The position numbers and the translations under genes were made by a program. Below are positions 6,567-58,710 of a stretch of 64,000 nucleotides of DNA, one piece after another (position 1 is the stretch's first letter; every line of letters begins with the position of its first letter). The stretch is from Alphaproteobacteria bacterium (GTDB lineage: Bacteria; Pseudomonadota; Alphaproteobacteria; MPNO01; UBA830): NCBI GenBank assembly GCA_964291215.2, contig OZ219790.1, positions 192,001 to 256,000 on the forward strand. The letters run 5' to 3'. Below the pieces are notes generated by a model. It saw only the letters and a program-made list of their open reading frames with translations. It searched no databases and was not told where the DNA came from.

Positions 6567-7749
6567 CTAGTCACCTGGCACTGAAGTAGAGTTCATTGTA
6601 AGATGGTCTTCCGGGTCAGACAAAGGAGGTCATCTTGATGGGGCGCGGTAAGGGACGGCCGCTGGCGGCCTTGGTCTTGAGCGATGAGGAACGGTCGTTT
6701 CTGGAAGCGCAGGTTCGGCGTCACCGTGTGGCGCGCTCGCTGTCGGATCGCTGCCGCATGATCCTGCGTTGCGCTGACGGGCTGGGCAACAAGGCGGTAG
6801 CCGCAGAACTCGGCATGCATGAGCACACCGTCGGCAAGTGGCGCAGGCGTTTCGTCAAGAACCGCATCGAGGGGCTTTCGGACGAGCCCCGTCCGGGGCG
6901 CCCGCGGAGCATCGCGGACGAGAAAGTGGCGGAAGTGATCGAGCGCACGCTCACCTCGACGCCTGCGGACGCGACCCACTGGTCGCTGCGCTCGATGGCG
7001 AAGGAGGCGGGGCTGTCACACACGTCGATCTGGCGCCTCTGGGGCGCCTTCGGCCTGCAGCCGCACCGGGCTGAGACGTTCAAGCTGTCGGCCGATCCGC
7101 ACTTCGTGGACAAGGTCCGCGACATTGTCGGCCTCTACCTCTCGCCGCCGGACCGCGCGCTGGTGCTCTGCGTCGACGAAAAGAGCCGGATCCAGGCCCT
7201 CGACCGCACCCAGCCGGTCCTGCCGATGCTGCCCGGCATCCCTGAGCGGCGCACCCACGATTACAAGCGCAACGGCACGACCTCGCTGTTCGCGGCGCTG
7301 GACATCGCCACCGGTGCGGTGATCGCCAAGTGCTATCGCCGCCACCGGGCCAGGGAGTTCCTCGACTTCCTCAAGGTGATCGACCGCAATGTCCCGGACG
7401 GGCTCGACATCCACATCGTCATGGACAACTACGCCACCCACAAGACCGCCGCGGTCAAAGCCTGGCTGGCCCGGCGGCCGCACTGGCACGTCCACTTCAC
7501 GCCGACATCCGCCTCGTGGCTCAACCAGGTCGAGCGCTGGTTCGCCGAACTGACCCGCAAGCAGTTGCAACGCGGCCGCTCGACCCTGCAACTCGAAACC
7601 GACATCCGGGCCTTCATCGAAACCCACAACGAAAATCCCAAGCCCTTCAAATGGACAAGGTCCGCTGACGAAATCCTCGCCGCCGTCAAACGCTTCTGTC
7701 TCCGCGTCGAACAAAACTTATGCCACGAACTTTAGATTCAGATGATTAG
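6567..7749 (+). mobile_element. IS630-family element (transposase 6638..7735)
   Basis: HTH plus LCVDEKS / IVMDNYATH / SWLNQVERWF; imperfect IR CTAGTCACCTG..CTGAAGT vs CTAATCATCTG..CTAAAGT. Confidence 0.9.
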
Positions 7750-8585
7750 GTCGTGTACCCATAAGGGGTTTTTTCTTCAGCGAAGCTGTGATTCAAGCTC
7801 CCAACTTCAGGGAGCGAGGACATGGGGCGGTACGATCTGACGGACTTCGAATGGCGGGTGATCAAGCCGTTGCTGCCGAACAAGACCCGTGGGGTGCCGC
7901 GGGTTGACGACCGGCGGGTGTTGAACGGCATTCTGTGGGTGCTTCGCGCGGGGGCGCCGTGGCGAGACCTGCCGGAGCACTACGGGCCTTATACGACCTG
8001 CTACAACCGGTTCAACCGCTGGCGCAAGAAGGGCATCTGGGATCAGTTGATGGATGCGGTGGTGGAGGCTCACGACGGCAATGTGCAGATGATCGACAGT
8101 TCGAGCGTCCGGGTTCACCAGCATGCGGCGGGATCAAAAAAGGGGGTCCGGATCGTTGCATGGGCCGTTCCCGTGGCGGACTGACCACGAAGATCCACGC
8201 CGTGTCGGACGTGAGCGGCCTGCCGGTCCGCTATGACCTCAGCCCCGGCCAGGCGCACGACACCACGGCCGCCGGTGCCATGCTGGCGACCCTGCCGCCC
8301 GACAGTTTCCTCGTCGCCGACAAGGCCTATGACGCCAAATGGATCCGTGACCTGATCGAGCAACACGATGCCGTCCCGATCATCCCCGACCGCGAAGGCG
8401 CGAAGACCAGGCACGCTTTCTCCAAACCCTTGTATAAATTGCGAAACCGGATCGAACGCGCCTTCAACAAACTCAAGCAGTTCCGCCGCATCGCCACCCG
8501 ATACGAAAAGCTCGCGGCCAACTTCCTCGCCATGATCAAGATCGCTACTGTCAGGCTCTGGCTACGCGCTTATGAGTCCACGGCC
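7749..8585 (+). mobile_element. IS5-family (IS427-like) element; transposase 7822..8588 via -1 frameshift
   Basis: Ends GGTCGTGTACCCATAAG and (revcomp) GGCCGTGGACTCATAAG; TA on both sides; orfA MGRYDLTDFEW and orfB RSRGGLTTKIH joined at slippery AAAAAAGGGGG near 8136. Confidence 0.9.
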
Positions 8586-9706
8586 TAGTGTCTTGTCATT
8601 CGTAAAATGTCGGATAAAGGCGTTCGAGTTTCACGCGGGCATCGTCGGTGGTGAATTGCCAATCCACCTTGGCCTGAATGCGGTCGCCTGCCAAGCGGCA
8701 ACTTCCCGGCGTAACACCTCGATGCAGTCGATGCGGCGGTTCAGGCGGATCATGACGTTGAGTTCCACCACGTTCAGCCAACTGCCGTGCTTGGGGGTGT
8801 AGACGAACTCGAAGCGGTCCCACAGGGCCTCGTCCGGCGGGTAGGCCTCGTAGAGGGCGCCGGGGAGTGTTGAGATTGTCCATCACCAGGGTGATGGTGG
8901 TGGCATCTTGGTAGCGCCCGGCGATGTCGGCCAGGAACTGCGCCCAATCGATCTTGCGCTCGGTTACCTTGGTCATGCGCTTGCCGGCCAGGGGTTCCAT
9001 GAAGACGTTGCAGGTACCGCAACGTCGATACTCGTAGTCGTTACGCCCGTCCCGGCGCCATGGCGATCGGTTGCCGTGTCTCGCCGGTCGGGGCGTTTCG
9101 TCCATGCAGACCACGGGGAAGGCGGCGGGGCGGCGATAGACATCGAGCACCTTCTCCATCGCCGCGGCGAAGTCGGCGTTCCCTTGAGGAGGAATCACCC
9201 ACCCGCTGCCATGGCTTGAGGCAGTTTTTTTTAGAACACGCCGCACCGTCTCGTGTGACACGGTGTAACCAAGCTCGACAACGCGGTCGGCCAGCAGCCG
9301 CAACGACCATTGCGCGTAACCCTCAGGCGGTTCACCACAACTCAGGGCCACGCGCCTCGAAGACGCCGTCGGCTTTTCGCATATTAGGTAGGACGGCGTC
9401 CTTGCCGGCCACCCAATGCCGCCTCCAGCCCCTCGAAACGCTTCTTTACTCGGTCTACTTTGCGCATGCTGATGCGCAGAATCTCAGCAATGACCTTCCC
9501 GGTCATCTGGCATTCATTGAACGCGCTCTCGTCGCAGTTAAGCAGGGCGTTGATTACCTTTTGCGACAGGTGCGAGCCCTTGATCTCCGAAAGTTCTGCC
9601 CGTTCGTCCAGGGTCACCACGTAGCGTTTCATACTCCGACCTCCATCCCGAATGGACGGACAGTCTAGCACCAAATGTACGACATATCATTGCTGACATA
9701 ACACTA
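8586..9706 (-). mobile_element. IS630-family element, degenerate
   Basis: IR TAGTGTCTTGTCA / TAGTGTTATGTCA; fragments VVCMDET, LVMDNLNT; near-identical copy at 55212-56341. Confidence 0.85.
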
Positions 9707-10752: not shown

Positions 10753-10876
10753 GTAACTGCTCACCCCCTGGTTCCGGCTTGATGTCGGGGTAGAGCAACG
10801 AACGGGTTTTCGTGGAGATTTGACACTGCAGGCCGATTCGTTTAGTGGTGGTTATCGAGAACGACGGGGACCGGCA

Positions 10877-11021
10877 GTGAGCTACTTTGGATCGAAGGCA
10901 ACGAGCGGGCTGTGCCATCGGAGGCGGCGCGCTGATGAAGCGCAAGGCGGAGTACCGGAAGATGCCGCCGAGCGAGCGCCAAGCGATTCTCGCGACGATC
11001 ATGACCGTCGAGGCCGGGTGA
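10877..11021 (+). pseudogene. DNA adenine methyltransferase remnant inside IS66 copy 1
   Basis: SYFGSKATSGLC..GGGALMKRK then YRKMPPSERQAILATIMTVEAG*; TGATG overlap with the downstream transposase start. Confidence 0.55.
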
Positions 11022-12599
11022 TGGCGACGGGCGGCGCGCGAGGAGTTCGAAGCGGCCAAGGCGCTGCGTGCGGCCGGCAAGGTGCCGAAAGAGGCCGTGA
11101 TCCGCGTCTTCGTCATCCTGCTCGACATCCTCATCGTCGTCCTTCTGGAGAAGACCGCGCACGAGCCGGAACTCCGGTCTGCCGCCGTCACAGACGGACA
11201 AGAGCGTGCCGGGAGCAAGGGCCCGAAGCCGAACCGGCAGATGGGCGACAACCTGCGCAAGATCATCGTCGAGGAGACGGTCGCGGCCTGCGACGCCTGC
11301 GGCGCTGACATCGACGGCCCCATCGATCGGGAGCGCCGCACGACATCGTGTTCGAGGTCGTCGAGCGCCGCGCCGAGATCAAGGAATGCCCGAAGTGCAA
11401 GGCCCGGGGCCGGTTCCCCGACAACATCCCGTGCAGTACGGCATTCAGGCCCTCGTCCCTGCTGGTCGCCCAGATGCTGTCCCTGCGCCGTGCTGTCGCG
11501 CTCGTGCAGGCGATCTCCGGCATCAAGCTCTCCGAGGCCTCGGCTATGCTTTCACGATGCGTCATGGGAGGAGGCCGCCGTGGCGCACCTCCTGCAACGC
11601 CCGATGTCGACGATTTCGGATCAACAGCAAGTGGCTCCATGTCGTGGGATCCTGACGTGCAAGTTCCCGCACCGCAAGCAAGAGATCGGCCCGTGCTACA
11701 AGGGCGTCCTGGGCCTCGTACATGGGCCAGTGTAGCCACCAGCTGTGTGGCAGCCACCTGCTGCGCGAACTGACCTTTGTCGTCGAGGCTACCGCGCGAC
11801 TGATGAAGAGCCTGCTCCCTGCCACAAGGTCAACAAGAGCGCATCCAAAAACCCTGAACGACGCCGGGCGCTACCGCACCATCAGGGCGCCAGGGAACTG
11901 CCCGACATCCCGCCGAAAGGAAAACGTGGACGCAAACGCGCACAACCTGCACGAACGTCTCGTGAAACACGAAAACCTGCGCTTCACAGACGACCATCGC
12001 GGTAGGGAACCGGGTTACCCCCCGCACAGAACCGGACGTGCGCTGTTCGCTCCTCCCCTGACGACAAGGCGCTGGTTTGGCCACGGGCTCAGTGGGCAGC
12101 GGTGAGGGTGTCTATGTCCCCGGTGAAGTCCTTTTGGGAGCGTCGCCGAAGGGCACGCAGCTGTTTGCATTGGTGTATGAACTTCTGCAGGCTGCTTCCT
12201 GGAACGGCGTAGTAGCAGCCGTTGATAACTCACCACTTGGCCGTTTCGTGCCGGTTATCGTGCCACCGCTTGCGCAAGGCCTCCTTGATCCGCCGCAGGG
12301 TGCCCGTTTGCGGCCGACCCTGAACCTGCCTTTCCTCGTCTGTTCGCAGAAGTGCGTCATGCCGAGGAAGTCGAACGTCTTGTCCACGCTTCCGGCGGTT
12401 CGCTCTGGCAAACCGACCGAACTCGATGATTTTCCGGGTGCAGTTCAAGTGGGCCAGTCTCTCCCCAAGGTCTCAGCGCCGCCCAGATGCTGAAAGCCGC
12501 ACACGAAGTCGTCCGCATAGCGGACAGTGATCGTGTCAGCCATCCGCTTGCGCCAGTGGTTCTGGAACCAGTCGTACGTAGTGCAGGTTCGCAAGGCAT

Positions 12600-14079
12600 G
12601 GCGATACGACGCCCCGAACGCAAAAGGTAACTCTCGCCTTCGGGTCCGCCGTTGTCGGGTTTCGACGGGTCCGCGCCCGGCGAGCCCGAGATCGGGATGG
12701 AATGGCGGATAGTGATTTTGTCCTCGGTGACAAGTATCTCCTTCACGAGGAGCCGGACGATACGCTGCCGTTCGGCGATGTCCAGAGTTTCGGCTGACGA
12801 ACGCAGCCGCGCCAGAAAGCCGGTCAGAGTCTCGGCGAGCCGAAGATAAGTCTCTCGATCCTTGGCCCGATCGACAGTGGATTGCAGTTCGCGATGCAAC
12901 GCTTGTTCCTGACGGCGGAGCTCGGGCGTTCTGTTGCGCAACTCGTCGATGGTGATCAACTCCTCCTGATAGGCCGTGACGAAGCGGTCGATGGCCTTGC
13001 GGACCCAGCCGATGCCGAAGGTCGGCTGCTGGCTTGGATCGGAGACACGGGCTGCCTCCAGTCCGATCTCTGCTTTCACGAGCGCCGGATCTTCGAGCAA
13101 GCGGACCAGCCATACGATGTCATCGAGCAGATGCACGGGACGGCTGTTGCACAGCGGGCCGTTGAGATGGCGCCAGGCGTCGGAACCCAGGCAGCGGTAG
13201 TAGGAGATCTTGCGCGCAGTGGTGCGGGCCGACGTGCGATACAGCGCGTAGCCGCATTTGCCGCACGCCCCTGCGAGACGCTGGGCGTTTTGGTCCTACG
13301 CCTGGAGAAGACCTTGTTGCGTTGCTCTTCGGCGAGGGCGAAGGTCTCTTCGCTGACGATCGCCGGCACTGGGATCTCGATCCAGTCTTCCCGCGGCCGT
13401 TCGTGACCGGCAGTGTTGCTGTCGGCGAACCCGTCGCGGCGGCGCAGAGGCCGCACGCTGCGGCGCAACCCGGGTCTTGCACGCCCTTCCCTTGTACTCC
13501 GCAGGATCACCACCGAGCGTTCCCAGCGCCCGGAAGACGTGGGGACACTTGTTGAGTGTGCGAGCGATCGCGCCGATGCTGACGTGATCTTCGGTGTAAT
13601 GGCGGTAGATCACGGACGCCTGCGGTTCGGTGATTTCGTAGAAAGCGTCGCTGTCCTGGGTTTTCTTGTGGTAGCCATAGGGTGCGCCGGCGACCTCGCC
13701 GCGCCCGATGACGCTTGCCGCGACGGGAGCGCTCCAGAATCTGCGCCCGCTCGTATTCCGCGATCATTCCCTGGACGAGGAGATGGTCTTCGGGGGTTTC
13801 CATCGACGGCAGGAACACGGTCTCAACGCCGGGCCAGCTCCTCGATGATCAGAACCTGATAGGCGGCGGCTCAAGCGATCCGGGGCATGGACCAGGACGG
13901 CGCGCCCCTCCGCGGCGAGGTCCCTGACACGCGTTCGAGAACCGCGCCGGTATAGCCGTCATCCTCGATGACCATGTCGGGCGCCACGCAGTAGCCATGG
14001 CGTGTAGGCAACCAAGGCCTGGCTGGCGATCGTGTTGCTATCCCTGCTCGCCCGAGACCCACAGGGCTGCAATCTTCAT
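12600..14079 (-). pseudogene. large serine recombinase (resolvase + recombinase + Zn ribbon), frameshifted
   Basis: MKIAA.. with GGAG RBS; IEDDGYTGAVLER; QGMIAEYERAQILERSRRGK; WIEIPVPAIVSEETF; RQRIVRLLVKEILV; the frame runs through the att junction (ESYLLRSG). Confidence 0.85.
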
Positions 14080-14200
14080 GATCGTCTCCTACGTCGTGGG
14101 TTGGGATCTTGTGGGCCGGGCACCAGGATCGCGTAGGCGTTCTGGAGCTTGGCGGCGAGCAGACGATCAAAGTCAAGGTGAACGGCGGGCCGAGAGCTTG
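14076..14200 (-). CDS. small ORF upstream of the recombinase (approximate bounds)
   Basis: One frame reads AVHLDFDRLLAAKLQNAYAILVP.. and ends overlapping the recombinase ATG; start not resolved. Confidence 0.4.
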
Positions 14201-14208
14201 AGCGGCGT

Positions 14209-14493
14209 TCAGCAATGACGACCCATGTCCGAGCGTCTCAAAGCCCGCGCGACAATCTCCCCTATCGAATCGCCGCTGCTCCTGGAATGCGCCCGCAAAG
14301 CCTCCGTGCCTGGAATCTTGATGGTGATCGGGATCACCGCCTCGGCCGGCTGGCGCACGCCTCCTGGAGGTAGCGATACGCCGTGACAAACCGAAGCGCT
14401 GAGACAGGCACCGCTTCGCTTGCCGTCACGCCTTGGGCGAGCAAGGTGTACGCGGTGCCGCTCGACCTTTTGGGATCGCGATGATCGGGCCAT
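14209..14493 (-). CDS. small putative DNA-binding protein (ribbon-helix-helix-like C-terminus), probably degenerate
   Basis: IPITIKIP..EALRAHS..SIGEIVARAL pattern; preceded by TTGACT-N17-TATCGT near the element end. Confidence 0.45.
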   Translation of the reverse strand: MARSSRSQKVERHRVHLARPRRDGKRSGACLSASVCHGVSLPPGGVRQPAEAVIPITIKIPGTEALRAHSRSSGDSIGEIVARALRRSDMGRHC

Positions 14494-15745
14494 TTATCAT
14501 AACGATATTACCGTTTGCGTCTCAAGTCAATCAAAGGGCGGTCGCGCCAATGCACAATTTCGCGCTCAAAGCGGAAGTTACCTTTTGCGTTCGAGGCGTT
14601 ACAATCGCCCCTTGCGGTGTTCCCTTGCCAGTCGGTCCCTTCCATGACGCCGGCGTCACTTGATGATCAGACCCCCCGATCCGTTTCCCGAGCATCGCGA
14701 CCAGATGGTCGCGGTTGTCGAAGGGGCGTCAACGATCCAGTTGACCTTCCGCCGTTCCACCGTGACGGCGCATGATGCGCCCCGGCCGGAAGCCGTAACT
14801 AAACCCGAGGAACTCCGTCTCGCGGCACCAGAATCACACCGCCCGCTGAAGAATCTTGTCCGAGGCAAGTTGCCCTCCATCCTCCTTGGGTATGTAAACC
14901 CTGGAGGCGCCCGCCCCTGTGCACACGGGCGTGCAGGTCAACCAGACGGTCTTCCACACCCTCCGCGTACGCTTGCCACACAACGCCCCGCCGCCGCGTC
15001 CTTCCTCAAGGAATGGAACGCATCGTGTAGAACGTCGACCGTCACGTGGTGGAGTAAAGACGCTCTTCCGGGTTCCTCTTCGCTACCTGCGTTCAGCCGC
15101 CTGTGACCCCCGCTTCTGCGCGCGGCGCGGGCCAACCGCATTGCCCTTCCCTCCAACAACTCCGCAGGCTCCGAAGAACCCTTGTTCGCCGCCTTCAACG
15201 GTACTATGGCCGAATCTGACTTCTCGTTCATCATCGGTTTACGGAATTTCCTCTGCGGCCCCTCCACGACAGAGGGGCAAGACCTCCCAGGTCCCTGCTT
15301 CGGCGCGTGCCCTGGTTCTCGGACCCCGCGGAGCCCCCCTCACCAACGCGGCTCGTTGCCTTCGGCCACGACCTCGGCACTCCGGTTTCAAAGCATCTCG
15401 TGGCTCAATAGCCTGCCGCTCCCCAACGCTTCGCCTCACGACGCATGGTTCACGGAGAAATTAGCCTCTCTCGGGACTTGCACCCGGCCACATTCCACCA
15501 GTTTGCCTGGCGCACCCGATGTCAGCTTCACCAACAATGCCGGAGAACAGAAGATCAGGATGGCAAAGCTCAAGGTGTCCGGATGCTTCCGCTCCACGCA
15601 AAAGCATGGTGCCAAGCTACCTCACCTCCATGGCCGCACTCGGCTACAACCCACTCGTTGCCACCCAGATCGCCCTCGACGGAAAAGCCGCAGACATCAT
15701 CAACGAGCACTATGAATCAGAACCCAACAAGGGGTGAGTAGATAC

Positions 15746-16632
15746 CAGGTGCCAAAGACGGCCGGTCACGGGGACGACCCGTCCCCAGTCGCTTGAACGC
15801 GGCCAGCGATCTTCTCGCGCCGTAGCCGAGATGTACATCAAGGGCGTTTCCACGCGGCAAGCCGAAGATGTAATGCGCGAGTTCGGGAGCCTGTCCTCTT
15901 CTCAGGTCAGCCGGGCCACCAGGTTGCTCGATGAAGAACTCGCCGCGCAACCGGCCCCTGATGAAATACTTGGATGCGCGCTATGAAAAAGCCCGCCATG
16001 ACGGCGTTGTGCGCGATGTCGCAATGCTCTCAGCCATCGGAACAGGGGCTGCAGGCACGTTCCGGGGCTCTCTGTGGCGCTCTCCGAGGCCGAGGTCCAT
16101 TGGAGAGCCTTCCTGGAAAGCTTGCTAGCCCTGCATGGTACGACCTTCATCGTCTCGGATGCCGGGCTGAAAGCAGCACGACGCGCGGTGCTGGGCGCGG
16201 CGATGTGGCAGCGCTGCCAGTTTCACTTGGCGCAAAACGCCGTGCACCGAACAACGACATCAGGAAACGTATCGGAAAACAGCTCGGAGCCACGCCTCCT
16301 CACTCCAAACCGCCGAGGCTGAACTGGGCGCCCTCGTGGCCAGCGACAAGCATCCAGGCTTCCTGGCTGAAAAACAATGCGGGGCTCGCTGTCTTCACCT
16401 TGCCCGATGCTCACCGCAAACGTATGCGAACCTCGAACGGCATCGAGCGACCGATCCAGCAAGAGCTCAAGCGGCGCACCTCCAAAGTCAGGGTCTTTCC
16501 GAACCTCGCCTCATTGGAGCACCTCTCAACCGTAGTCCTCGTCGAGGAAAAATGGGAAACCGAAACCAAGGCATCAAATGGGAACAGCTCGATCAGCTTC
16601 ACAACAATTTCCAGACATCAGGTTGCGTAGTC
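15746..16632 (+). mobile_element. IS256-family element, 3' part (degenerate)
   Basis: WQRCQFHL, RTSNGIER, KVRVFPN motifs; right end ATTTCCAGACATCAGGTTGCGTAGTC shared with the copy ending at 57440. Confidence 0.85.
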
Positions 16633-29532: not shown

Positions 29533-30550
29533 CAGGCATTTCCCACGCTGCATTCAATTTTGCTGTCTTCTGCTGTCCGGAGGTTTCACGGCGTGCCGGG
29601 TTTTTCGGCTTCGGGGCCGTCCGCGGTCGGCGGCGTTGCCGGCGCGCGGGCGGGTTGTTTTCGGGTTGTGGGCGGCGTCCGGGAATCGGCCGGACATCAT
29701 TGGTGCTCAGGGCTGCGACGGCTTCCCGGCGGTCGAGCTGCAGCCGTGTTTCGGCGAGGCTCTCGCGTTCGGTTGGCGAAGATCACCGCGAGCGCGATGT
29801 TGTCGAGGCTGGCGCGGTTTGCGGGTCAGGCAGGCGTCTTCGCCGAAGACGCAGTCTCGGTGGTTCATGTTTTCCACGGCCCGCGGCCGCAGCAGTTCCT
29901 CTGGCGACGCGTGTTGCGCATCGAGCTGATGCACCGGTGCAGTCGTTGCCGCTCGCTGCGCCGCTGGCGCTCTTTCCCGGCGGCTTGCGGTAGCATGCGG
30001 GCGATCTGGCCGGGGTAGTTGATCAGGTCCTCGAGCGGCACGCGCTGCTCAAGGCGGGCCTTGCCTCCCTGAAGCGGCCATCCGTCTCCCGGTCGATGCC
30101 GTCGAAGGTTTCGGGCGCCCTTGACCGGAAAGACGTGGTCTGCGCCGCAGCGCCGGGTTATCAGCGTCGCCGGCGTCGTGCGGGTGATCACCTTGCCGCG
30201 GACATCGGTGCGCTCGAGGAGGTGGCCGCCAGCTCGCCGTCGTCGAAGTTCAACAGCGCGAAGGGTGCGCCGGAGGCGTGAGGGCCACGGTCTCGTGGTG
30301 GCCGCCGCGGATGCGCTTGCCGTCGTCACGGTCGCCGCTGCCCCGTTTTCGTTCAAGGTCGCCGCACAAATTTCGGGCATGTTGCCTGAATTCAGATCGC
30401 CCGCAGCGGCGGTTGCGCAACGCGCCGAACCCTCCATCCGGTCCGCATTCGCTCGGTGAATGCGGACCGGCGGCTCAATGCGGGATGCGAGCCGCCCCGA
30501 GCCGCCGGATCACTCCGCAGGCGCGGTTCCGGGGGCGTTGCGTCCGAGGA
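29533..30550 (-). mobile_element. ISAs1-family remnant
   Basis: GKVIT..GADHVFPVKG and VENMNHRDCVFGED fragments; CAGG terminus at 29533. Confidence 0.7.
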
Positions 30551-30551
30551 T

Positions 30552-30893
30552 CAGACATCCTGACCTCGGCTTTGATTTCTTCGAATCAGGGTGATTCTTC
30601 CGGGCCGAGTTTGCGTGCGTTGTCTGGCAGTTCTTAGATCATGCGGAGGCCGGTTCCGGAGCTTCTTCACTGCACGGTCGCGCGGCTCACGCCGCCTGCA
30701 GGTTTCTTTGAGGTTCCGATCTGGACGGCTTCAGGAGAGTGCATCGCGAACGTGTTCATGGCCGGGGCCATCCAATTCCAGGCATCGTGCCATCACGCGG
30801 CTATGTTGTCAAGAAAACCTGTAAAATCATTGATTGTATTGAAAAAAATGGAATATAGACGGATCAAGTCGACTCACGAGGTCAGGACATCTG
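30552..30893. mobile_element. internally deleted IS / MITE (possibly IS4-derived)
   Basis: 17-bp IR CAGACATCCTGACCTCG / CGAGGTCAGGACATCTG (2 mismatches); the minus strand has a GRREPR..AVKK-like transposase tail. Confidence 0.6.
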
Positions 30894-30904
30894 AAGTTGG
30901 TTGA

Positions 30905-32996
<2,092 letters not shown>

Positions 32997-57440: not shown

Positions 57441-58710
57441 GTCGAATGTCCTGCCCGCCCCGCGAGATCGCCTTGGCAAACCGTCCAAACTCGACGATTG
57501 TCCGGGTGAAGGGTGAGACCAAAGCGGCCTCTCCCGAACGTCGCGAAGGTATGTCTCCGCATCCTGCTGGAACCCGACCACAATATCGTCCGCGTAGCGG
57601 GCAATGATCGCTTGACCGTTCGGAACCTTCGGACGCCATGCCTTGTGGAACCACAGATCGAGCACATAGTGCAGAAGCACGTTCGCAGGGGCTGACAATG
57701 GCACCCTGAGGCGTACCCGCACCGGTGTCGCTCCATGACGCCAGCGTTCAGCCACTTGCGGATCAGCGCCCGCCTGTCGCGTTGCTCCAGGAACTTGATC
57801 AACCAATCCCCGTGTCGAAGTATGCCTGAATGTCCGCGTCGACTATCCAGTTGACCTTGCGCCCCTCGATCCCGAACGCCAGGGCGTCGAGAGCGTCCCT
57901 CGGCCCGGTCGGAACCCGTAGCCAAGGAACTCCACCTCATAAATCGGTGTCAGGATCACATCTACAACCGCCTTCTGAACGATCTTGTCCTCCAGTGCGA
58001 CAAGCGGTCCTGTCCCGCCTTGGGTATCTCAACCCACCGGCGGCGCCCGGTACGCTCCCCCACGATGCAGGCGCGAGTGCAGATCAAGCAAGCGCTCGTC
58101 CAGACCCTCGCCATACGCCGCCCACGTCACGCCGTCGACACCTGCCGAGGCTTCCTTCTTCAGACCGAACCAGGCCGCCCGGAGCGCATCCGGCGTGATG
58201 GAAGAGTGCACGTTCCTTCGGGTTCCTCTCTGCAGCCCCGGTCCGCCGCCTGTGGCACCCGACACTGCGTTCGGCGCGTGCTTTGGCGTCCCGAATTCCC
58301 CTTGGTCGAGGCCCTTTCCTCCAGCAACTCCGCAGAAGCTCCCTTGTTCGCCGCCTTCACAGGGCCCCTTCTTCAAACCGTTCCTCATAGGCTTCGGCTT
58401 TCTCCTTCCCTGCACGGTCCCGACAGGCGGGATAGTTCGAAGACCTCCCGGGGTCCCAGGCGTGCGGACAGGTTCTCTGACACCGCGGGGTTCATCTCAC
58501 CAAATCGATGCCTGCGAGGTTGCCTTCGACCGTTCCGAAGCCTCGGCACCCCGAACCATGAGCTTTTCGGTGCTCATTAGCCCTGCCCCCGCTACCGACG
58601 CTTCGCCTGCCCCCTCGCGGGAACCGACGCTCACGGAGAAACGCGGTTTGGTTACTCCTTCGTTCCAGGGGACTTTCACCCCCTACCTCCTGCCAGTTCG
58701 CTTGGCACAC
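57441..58710 (-). mobile_element. group II intron, 5' part (3' end missing beyond IS256)
   Basis: GTGTGCCAAG 5' end at 58710; AGVDGVTW, GTPQGAIVSP, LHYVLDLWF, RYADDIVVGF. Confidence 0.85.

Follow-up and report, generated by a model that had tools for sequence, protein, structure and literature searches.

The window analysed here is a 64,000-nucleotide stretch of the genome of an Alphaproteobacteria bacterium (positions 192,001 to 256,000 of contig OZ219790.1, assembly GCA_964291215.2; the genome is termed G000). At 12608..14600, between two copies of a 2-bp core, it contains a 1,993-bp insertion that lies within the reverse transcriptase (RT) gene of a group II intron; intact relatives of the insertion are about 2,240 bp long. 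The insertion is a large-serine-recombinase (LSR) element whose target is one codon in the RT genes of group II introns, and its presence there inactivates the RT. We consider it highly probable, from comparisons of sequence, that the window holds a dead copy of a 2.2-kb element which occupies this RT codon and moves by itself, via a circle that is predicted to complete the recombinase gene. All features of this locus are on the minus strand.

The host intron spans 11996..15515, with its 5' GUGCG at 15515 and its 3' end at 11996. The RF02005 match at 15314-15480 is its RNA, and contigs of three runs contain the joint of its flanks, 11994-15515. The RT frame reads ...GTPQGAIV to 14601, meets the element and resumes with SPCLAN at 12604, which is the exact split that a preliminary description of this DNA had given. 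The 5' half of the RT gene (14603..15240, upper bound approximate) ends in the PQG motif and the 3' half (12100..12605, lower bound approximate) starts at Ser-Pro and contains YADD; both are broken. The core, AC/GT, stands at 14601..14602 at the left (RT-upstream) junction, where it makes up bases 1-2 of the RT codon before Ser-Pro, and at 12606..12607 at the right (RT-downstream) junction. A duplicated TAC had been proposed, of which AC is indeed duplicated; the third base is coincidental, since a third G000 copy has a different host base after the core, and a 3-bp duplication was rejected because the family shares 2 bp. The terminal arms, left at 14576..14599 and right at 12609..12632, are putative halves of an attP site. 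They are complementary at 23 of 24 positions, in agreement with the single mismatch first reported, and the base next to the core is likewise mismatched; the right arm also codes for the last LSR residues of the integrated form. The two junctions, to which the preliminary description had attached weight, are unevenly covered: one run X2 contig bridges 14602 with at least 31 letters on each side, and none of the pieces listed for the runs bridges 12605 with the window's own flank. The empty form of the target is represented by contigs of runs X2 and X3 that join 12603 to 14606. A loose end in run X2 at window position 12611 comes from a close copy of the element, inversely oriented, whose right arm is joined to the PQG codons of another RT.

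Three pseudogenes lie within the element: an LSR gene (12609..14079), ORF2 (14084..14217) and ORF1 (14215..14493). At the left end a further frame of 27 codons plus a stop (14508..14591), referred to below as the tail, has no start of its own and is in frame with the LSR only across joined ends. A sigma70-like promoter match (14502..14530; two overlapping sites against a shuffle mean of 0.1, consensus match only) overlaps the end of the tail and points at ORF1. In intact relatives ORF1 encodes a 109-aa protein with helix-turn-helix (HTH) and ribbon-helix-helix parts (PF12651 above cut-off in the intact relative L090), presumably a regulator. ORF2 of the relatives has a conserved core of about 35-50 aa that belongs to no Pfam family, with Atlas matches to unnamed clusters at 0.84-0.90; to call it a candidate partner of the recombinase is a guess. 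The LSR of L090 has PF00239, PF07508 and PF13408 above cut-off, that is Resolvase, Recombinase and zinc-ribbon domains. The catalytic domain occupies residues 4-151 (NF033518 scores 45 against a cut-off of 110), and the fold matches the SPbeta, phiC31 and Bxb1 integrases, with a Foldseek E of 6e-20 to the SPbeta integrase.

The window copy is, on its sequence, dead: element, intron RT and intron domains V/VI are all broken. Comparison with an intact relative (L047, 89% identical to the window element) reveals 35 deletions of 5-16 nt each, 238 nt in total. The LSR gene has 26 of them, 12 of which shift the frame by not being multiples of three, and one falls just before the catalytic serine; Pfam finds sub-threshold fragments only, and the last open LSR frame extends beyond the element and meets its stop at 12357, within the intron. 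Of the RT halves, one has an open frame of just 42 codons and the other of 22. Domains V/VI of the intron have 7-nt deletions relative to a sister copy, and no RF00029 (domain V) match is found in the window intron. An assembly artefact or chance juxtaposition can for practical purposes be dismissed: the region is full of short deletions and its repeats invite mis-assembly, but contigs of run X1 match 711 bp of the element with 0 gaps while spanning several deletions, which argues that the decay is real and rules out assembly error as its source, and the same site is occupied on complete isolate plasmids and at independent loci. The mobile DNA of G000 in general (window 10800-16600 and repeats genome-wide) has many short deletions, mostly of 5-7 nt; the 35 in the 2.2-kb element amount to about 1 per 60 bp. 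They are real, because independent contigs reproduce them.

A scan of species genomes gave at least 302 relatives among at least 599 pattern matches. Its 79 best loci, 5 loci on plasmids and the 3 G000 copies make up the 87 loci compared, several per genome and hence not independent samples. Their 174 ends include 27 that could not be scored. Among the 147 scorable junctions of these best-ranked loci, 142 fall at the same RT codon, PQGxx-core-x-SP.L.N (137 of 141 outside G000), in hosts from five phyla: Pseudomonadota, Acidobacteriota, Gemmatimonadota, Verrucomicrobiota and Actinomycetota. The supposition that intron RT genes are a consistent target has thus stood, and with it that of a minimal LSR hyperparasite that inactivates the RT. 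The target RTs are diverse (median identity 39.7% for 32 upstream halves); the halves match TIGR04416 up to position 188 on the upstream side and from 184-190 on the downstream side, and a search of 25 loci for group II intron RNA gave matches for 19, on the strand of the RT, no more than about 1.3 kb away and in several Rfam families. Orientation is 27:27 among loci with matching RT halves, and 5 loci carry two like halves. The element keeps a constant size of about 2.2 kb with ORF1, ORF2 and LSR as its only three ORFs and no cargo. Intact elements are present in 2 of 60 relatives of G000, both at the same codon. In a five-genome census, 23 of 27 junction records were on target and 1 was on target with a 1-nt slip.

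The target had also been credited with a dyad of its own. For 53 distinct targets the mean dyad score is 7.9/26 against 7.1 +/- 2.3 for shifted centres, and a general attB dyad was rejected; the long dyad is confined to the window's allele. What these targets have in common with one another, and with the arms, is a G-G that lies some 5-6 bp from the centre on each side. The arms themselves vary between elements (L055, L060, L063, L079 and others), and the two arms of one element co-vary so that the palindrome is kept.

Whereas the position of the core is nearly fixed, its sequence is not. In RT sense the cores are mostly AT, GT, CT, GC and TT, the first two bases of a variable codon. The left and right cores are unlike in 21 of 54 loci, 16 of them at one base and 5 at both. 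The host's own core can be identified from empty sites: L051 (GC/AT) has host core GC by a cognate empty site in the same genome, L057 (CT/AT) has host core AT in the same way, and L060 (GT/AC) has host core GT by an empty site from another genome. At L009 both sides read GT, and the empty site of the same locus reads AT. The odd core at L051, L057 and L060 is thus foreign, carried from an earlier site, unlike integration of the Bxb1/phiC31 type. A foreign core is found on either side, as would be expected if a heteroduplex segregates. Host cores of GT and of CT each have insertions in the two orientations. At five loci, two of them on complete isolate plasmids, the core is the reverse complement of an RT-type core, the trace that would be expected had the element previously been inserted the other way round. 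The residue that a foreign core yields at the RT codon is in most cases a tolerated one (I, V, L, A).

Six pairs of copies from the same genome or sample are 98.4-100% identical, and the identity breaks off at the ends of the element or no more than about 120 bp from them, as it does in the G059 pair. Near-identical copies in unrelated RTs of one genome indicate that the element moves by itself. Joined ends, the trace of the attP circles foreseen in the preliminary description, occur in 7 metagenome contigs; none is present among the joints listed for runs X1-X4 (contigs only), and none was found in viral contigs. A circular form of the element is likely on this basis. Three joined-end junctions (L086, L087 and L091) lie beside non-LSR DNA that by eye resembles a DNA methyltransferase fragment, possibly a cargo-bearing or tandem form. 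In genome G006, two elements one base apart (L079 and L080) join intron halves of different subtypes, through either element-mediated intron shuffling or mis-assembly; a move of intron and element as a unit was rejected for this pair because its 3' halves come from different subtypes.

It had been suggested that the element might be spliced out, or even spread, with the intron RNA. That it travels mainly as intron RNA cargo, leaving by splicing and retrohoming by means of an RT provided in trans, is a very improbable reading. Many host introns keep their RNA domains, both RT halves are still long open frames at 20 of 46 loci, and the occupied G000 copies stand in different exon contexts, all of which would suit such a route. 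Against it, no pair consistent with a move of intron plus element survived checking, the different 3' halves of L079 and L080 included, and the window intron has lost parts of domains V/VI. Copies within G000 also speak against co-spread. The window element and that at C1:1652648 differ at 3 bases, and their intron flanks at 55; the two introns are identical only within about 80 bp of the junctions. Identity confined to the element and these short flanks points to copying by conversion, and the later spread to other G000 intron copies was likely passive, by gene conversion or by a recombinase acting in trans.

G000 holds 62 sites of the host intron family, of which 58 are empty, 3 occupied and 1 unpaired, so that the empty form of the site is confirmed there. 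All three occupied copies (the window and two more) are split at the same codon, 18 of the empty sites have the exact intact target, and no intact LSR of the element family was found in this genome. The second occupied intron (C1:1651984-1655627) is nested in another copy of the same intron family. In 38 of the 58 empty copies the core codon has been lost via two different small deletions in two intron subtypes; the losses may be scars or a means of evading the element, or, deletions being so frequent here, mere chance.

The LSR frame crosses the right arm without a stop, and the integrated form ends after 6 to more than 130 host-coded residues. At the opposite end, 73 of 74 left ends have the tail frame, which lacks a start, uninterrupted over 26-28 codons, and joining of the ends puts it in frame with the LSR. 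From pairwise comparisons, not independent, of 48 distinct sequences, the tail frame has a pN/pS of 0.54 against 1.25 and 1.30 in the other frames, which contain stops in 33 of 48 and in all 48 sequences. The base that opens the joint codon is never T in 80 right ends, so that stops are avoided with AA, AG or GA cores. A profile of the tail found 279 proteins. Three of the 120 listed are natural LSR-tail fusions (L090, of 609 aa, P0075 and P0049), and most of the others are host-strand gene calls that run into the tail. A search with the 44 C-terminal residues of the fused protein returned only that protein itself, and a C-terminal model gave no Foldseek match at E <= 0.001. The left end of the element thus encodes a C-terminal tail of the LSR that is under selection, and the LSR gene is predicted to be whole only when the element ends are joined.

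These features can be placed in a cycle that we regard as the probable life of the intact element. Recombination between the two ends, catalysed by the LSR, would release the element as a circle. There the LSR frame would continue past the joined arms and take in the tail, and its product would gain about 30 aa. This long form would then recombine the near-perfect palindromic joint with an RT target, recognised by the bases that the protein motif holds constant, and would cut around 2 bp whose identity is not required; insertion could be in either orientation, and the heteroduplex would leave the core of the old host on one side. Once integrated, the LSR would be without its tail and would end in random host-coded residues. 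That the tail is an integrate-or-excise switch, with ORF2 as excision partner and ORF1 as a repressor of the left-end promoter, is a tentative addition for which the chances are somewhat below even.

Several observations weigh against this account. Both structure models give the tail as a single strand (pLDDT about 77-80) behind a disordered linker, with its contacts not visible, and the promoter match that overlaps the tail end could account for part of the tail's conservation. Only two of the seven joined-end contigs (L085 and L088) fit a simple circle, or else a tandem, of one element; in L090 the ends belong to two different elements, in L089 they meet head-to-head, the remaining three border on unrelated DNA, and palindromic joints can mislead assemblers. 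Some loci join RT halves from different introns (the 5 with like halves, and L079/L080), so that not all 21 core mismatches need be real; the mismatches were checked against an empty site at three loci only. Nor is target specificity absolute: the 5 junctions not counted at the codon are both ends of L039, one end each of L008 and L064, and one G000 end that does lie at the site, with an additional base upstream, and the remaining 3 of the 27 census junctions belong to a subfamily that sits in a palindrome. L039 is identical to an on-target copy of the same genome (L035), and the sites of L039, L008 and L064 are off-target or degenerate.

The same LSR can also be viewed as a classical phage-type integrase module, with strict core, fixed orientation and control by a recombination directionality factor (RDF), that is a satellite or prophage remnant which uses RT genes as attB. 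The domains and fold are standard for such enzymes, the closest phage relatives are recombinases of Wolbachia phage WO at 34-39% identity, and ORF2 could be an RDF. This explanation is nevertheless very improbable, given that none of 74 pattern matches in viral contigs is a relative of the element, that viral contigs have no joined-end junction, and that the element has a constant 2.2 kb without cargo, both orientations, foreign cores and several copies per genome.

More distant recombinases share the build of the element. Among 18 more distant plasmid loci the targets are the same RT codon in 6, an IS5-type motif in 3 (split between RW(V/I)V and VERT), another DDE motif in 1 (between HV and E), an IS256 motif in 2 (QRCxH), an IS110-like motif in 1 (ARKLA) and other or unclear sites in 5; several have clear 22-28-bp inverted arms about 1.9-2.0 kb apart. 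Mini-elements with inverted arms in transposase motifs are seen at L128, L129, L134, L127, L133, L135 and L122, where the IS110 and L127 targets are presumed from motifs, in pieces of 39-40 aa with no Pfam match. A second LSR clade (L123, L130, L131 and L138; about 40% identity, different arms) splits the same RT codon on plasmids of Pseudomonas, Stutzerimonas and Cupriavidus. In a tree of 39 rows and 300 N-terminal columns, with a midpoint root that serves the drawing alone, the RT-targeting rows fall into two well-supported groups, and the tree is as compatible with one origin as with two. A subfamily that is 87% identical at the left end (L187, L188 and L189) is centred in a palindrome of about 50 bp within unrelated surroundings, and a palindrome context is present in 8 of the 120 listed tail-bearing proteins. 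A profile search returned 6,272 representatives at E <= 1e-30, other LSRs included. There is close to an even chance that these recombinases belong to an undescribed superfamily of LSR-moved insertion sequences, in which every clade exploits either a palindrome or the motif codons of some other mobile element (group II intron RT for two separate clades, IS5, IS256, IS110), with mismatched cores, insertion in either orientation and a direction set by the loss and recovery of their own C-terminal tail.

The range of targets also bears on the idea that the element is a domesticated, reversible off-switch of gene integrity whose excision turns the RT on. Precise loss would restore the frame, the foreign cores are mostly tolerated, and the RT halves are often open. 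We give this idea very little credence: the distribution is patchy among related genomes, copies have multiplied into unrelated RTs, the relatives insert in IS5, IS256 and IS110 motifs or in a palindrome, a choice of targets to be expected of selfish elements, and the window copy has decayed.

The window contains other mobile DNA. A second group II intron (RF02005) lies at 58471-58676 on the minus strand, and a pair of long inverted repeats, with arms about 1.7 kb apart, at about 29538-31314. Further insertion sequences are located at 6635-8588 and 15750-16600, where inspection by eye suggests IS630-like and IS5-like ORFs and PF00872 marks a decayed IS256. The window intron itself lies in a gene that is presumably IS66-like, judged by a motif; Pfam gave no such match.

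If the proposed cycle is true, strand exchange occurs without core identity and direction is set by a gene completed on the circle, against the usual rules for serine integrases. The element would add a layer to mobile-element ecology, as a parasite that caps the spread of group II introns by way of a codon that the RT cannot easily change, and it may leave chimeric introns behind. Its clades would offer a natural set of related recombinases, each with a different codon-defined target, from which the basis of LSR specificity might be learned. The element also explains a recurring pattern of annotation, that of a recombinase gene between two partial RT or transposase genes.

Serine integrases of phages and islands (SPbeta SprA, phiC31, Bxb1, A118) share domain order and fold with the recombinase of the element. 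In integration of the Bxb1/phiC31 type the partner sites have an identical 2-bp core and orientation is fixed at a non-palindromic core; these systems belong to phages or islands with cargo, and have a separate recombination directionality factor. The element differs on each of the first three counts: the cores are unlike in 21 of 54 loci, GT and CT cores are occupied both ways, and about 2.2 kb with three ORFs and no viral-contig relative takes the place of phage or island cargo. Its arms are near-perfect, and the joint lies inside the integrase gene. Like the gene-targeting LSRs of Durrant et al. (PMC10083194), the element integrates inside conserved coding sequence; the terms reverse transcriptase and maturase are absent from the main text, eight text supplements and preprint of that study.

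The transposons Tn4451/Tn4453 (TnpX) and Tn5397 (TndX) resemble the element in that one LSR moves a multi-copy unit. Transposons of the Tn4451/Tn5397 type carry mobilisation and resistance genes; the element has only two small genes besides its LSR, and a codon-exact target (142 of 147 junctions). The target specificity of these transposons is low, and a circular form of Tn4451 has been reported (the latter in a reference title; both PMC5704250). IS607 resembles the element in its IS size, serine chemistry and proposed circle, but has little target specificity and a matching overlap dinucleotide (PMC4058570). Its TnpA has an N-terminal HTH and a C-terminal catalytic domain, whereas the element has a full LSR, a strict target and a variable core.

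The 'suicidal' integrases of the archaeal SSV family have their site inside the integrase frame, and integration splits the gene (PMC7253208). A recombination site within the integrase ORF is common to both systems. Theirs are tyrosine recombinases left as two inactive pseudogenes; the serine LSR of the element loses about 30 C-terminal residues and keeps all its domains, its tail is under coding constraint, and natural fusions exist. Hyperparasitic use of a conserved site in another mobile element has a parallel in IME_oriT, which targets the oriT of integrative and conjugative elements (PMC5704250) with a tyrosine integrase, while the element uses an LSR and the codons of an enzyme motif. 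The literature searched, with partial coverage, holds no description of this element family. It is well supported that the element is an IS-sized, site-specific LSR transposon which falls outside each of the known families examined on their defining tests.

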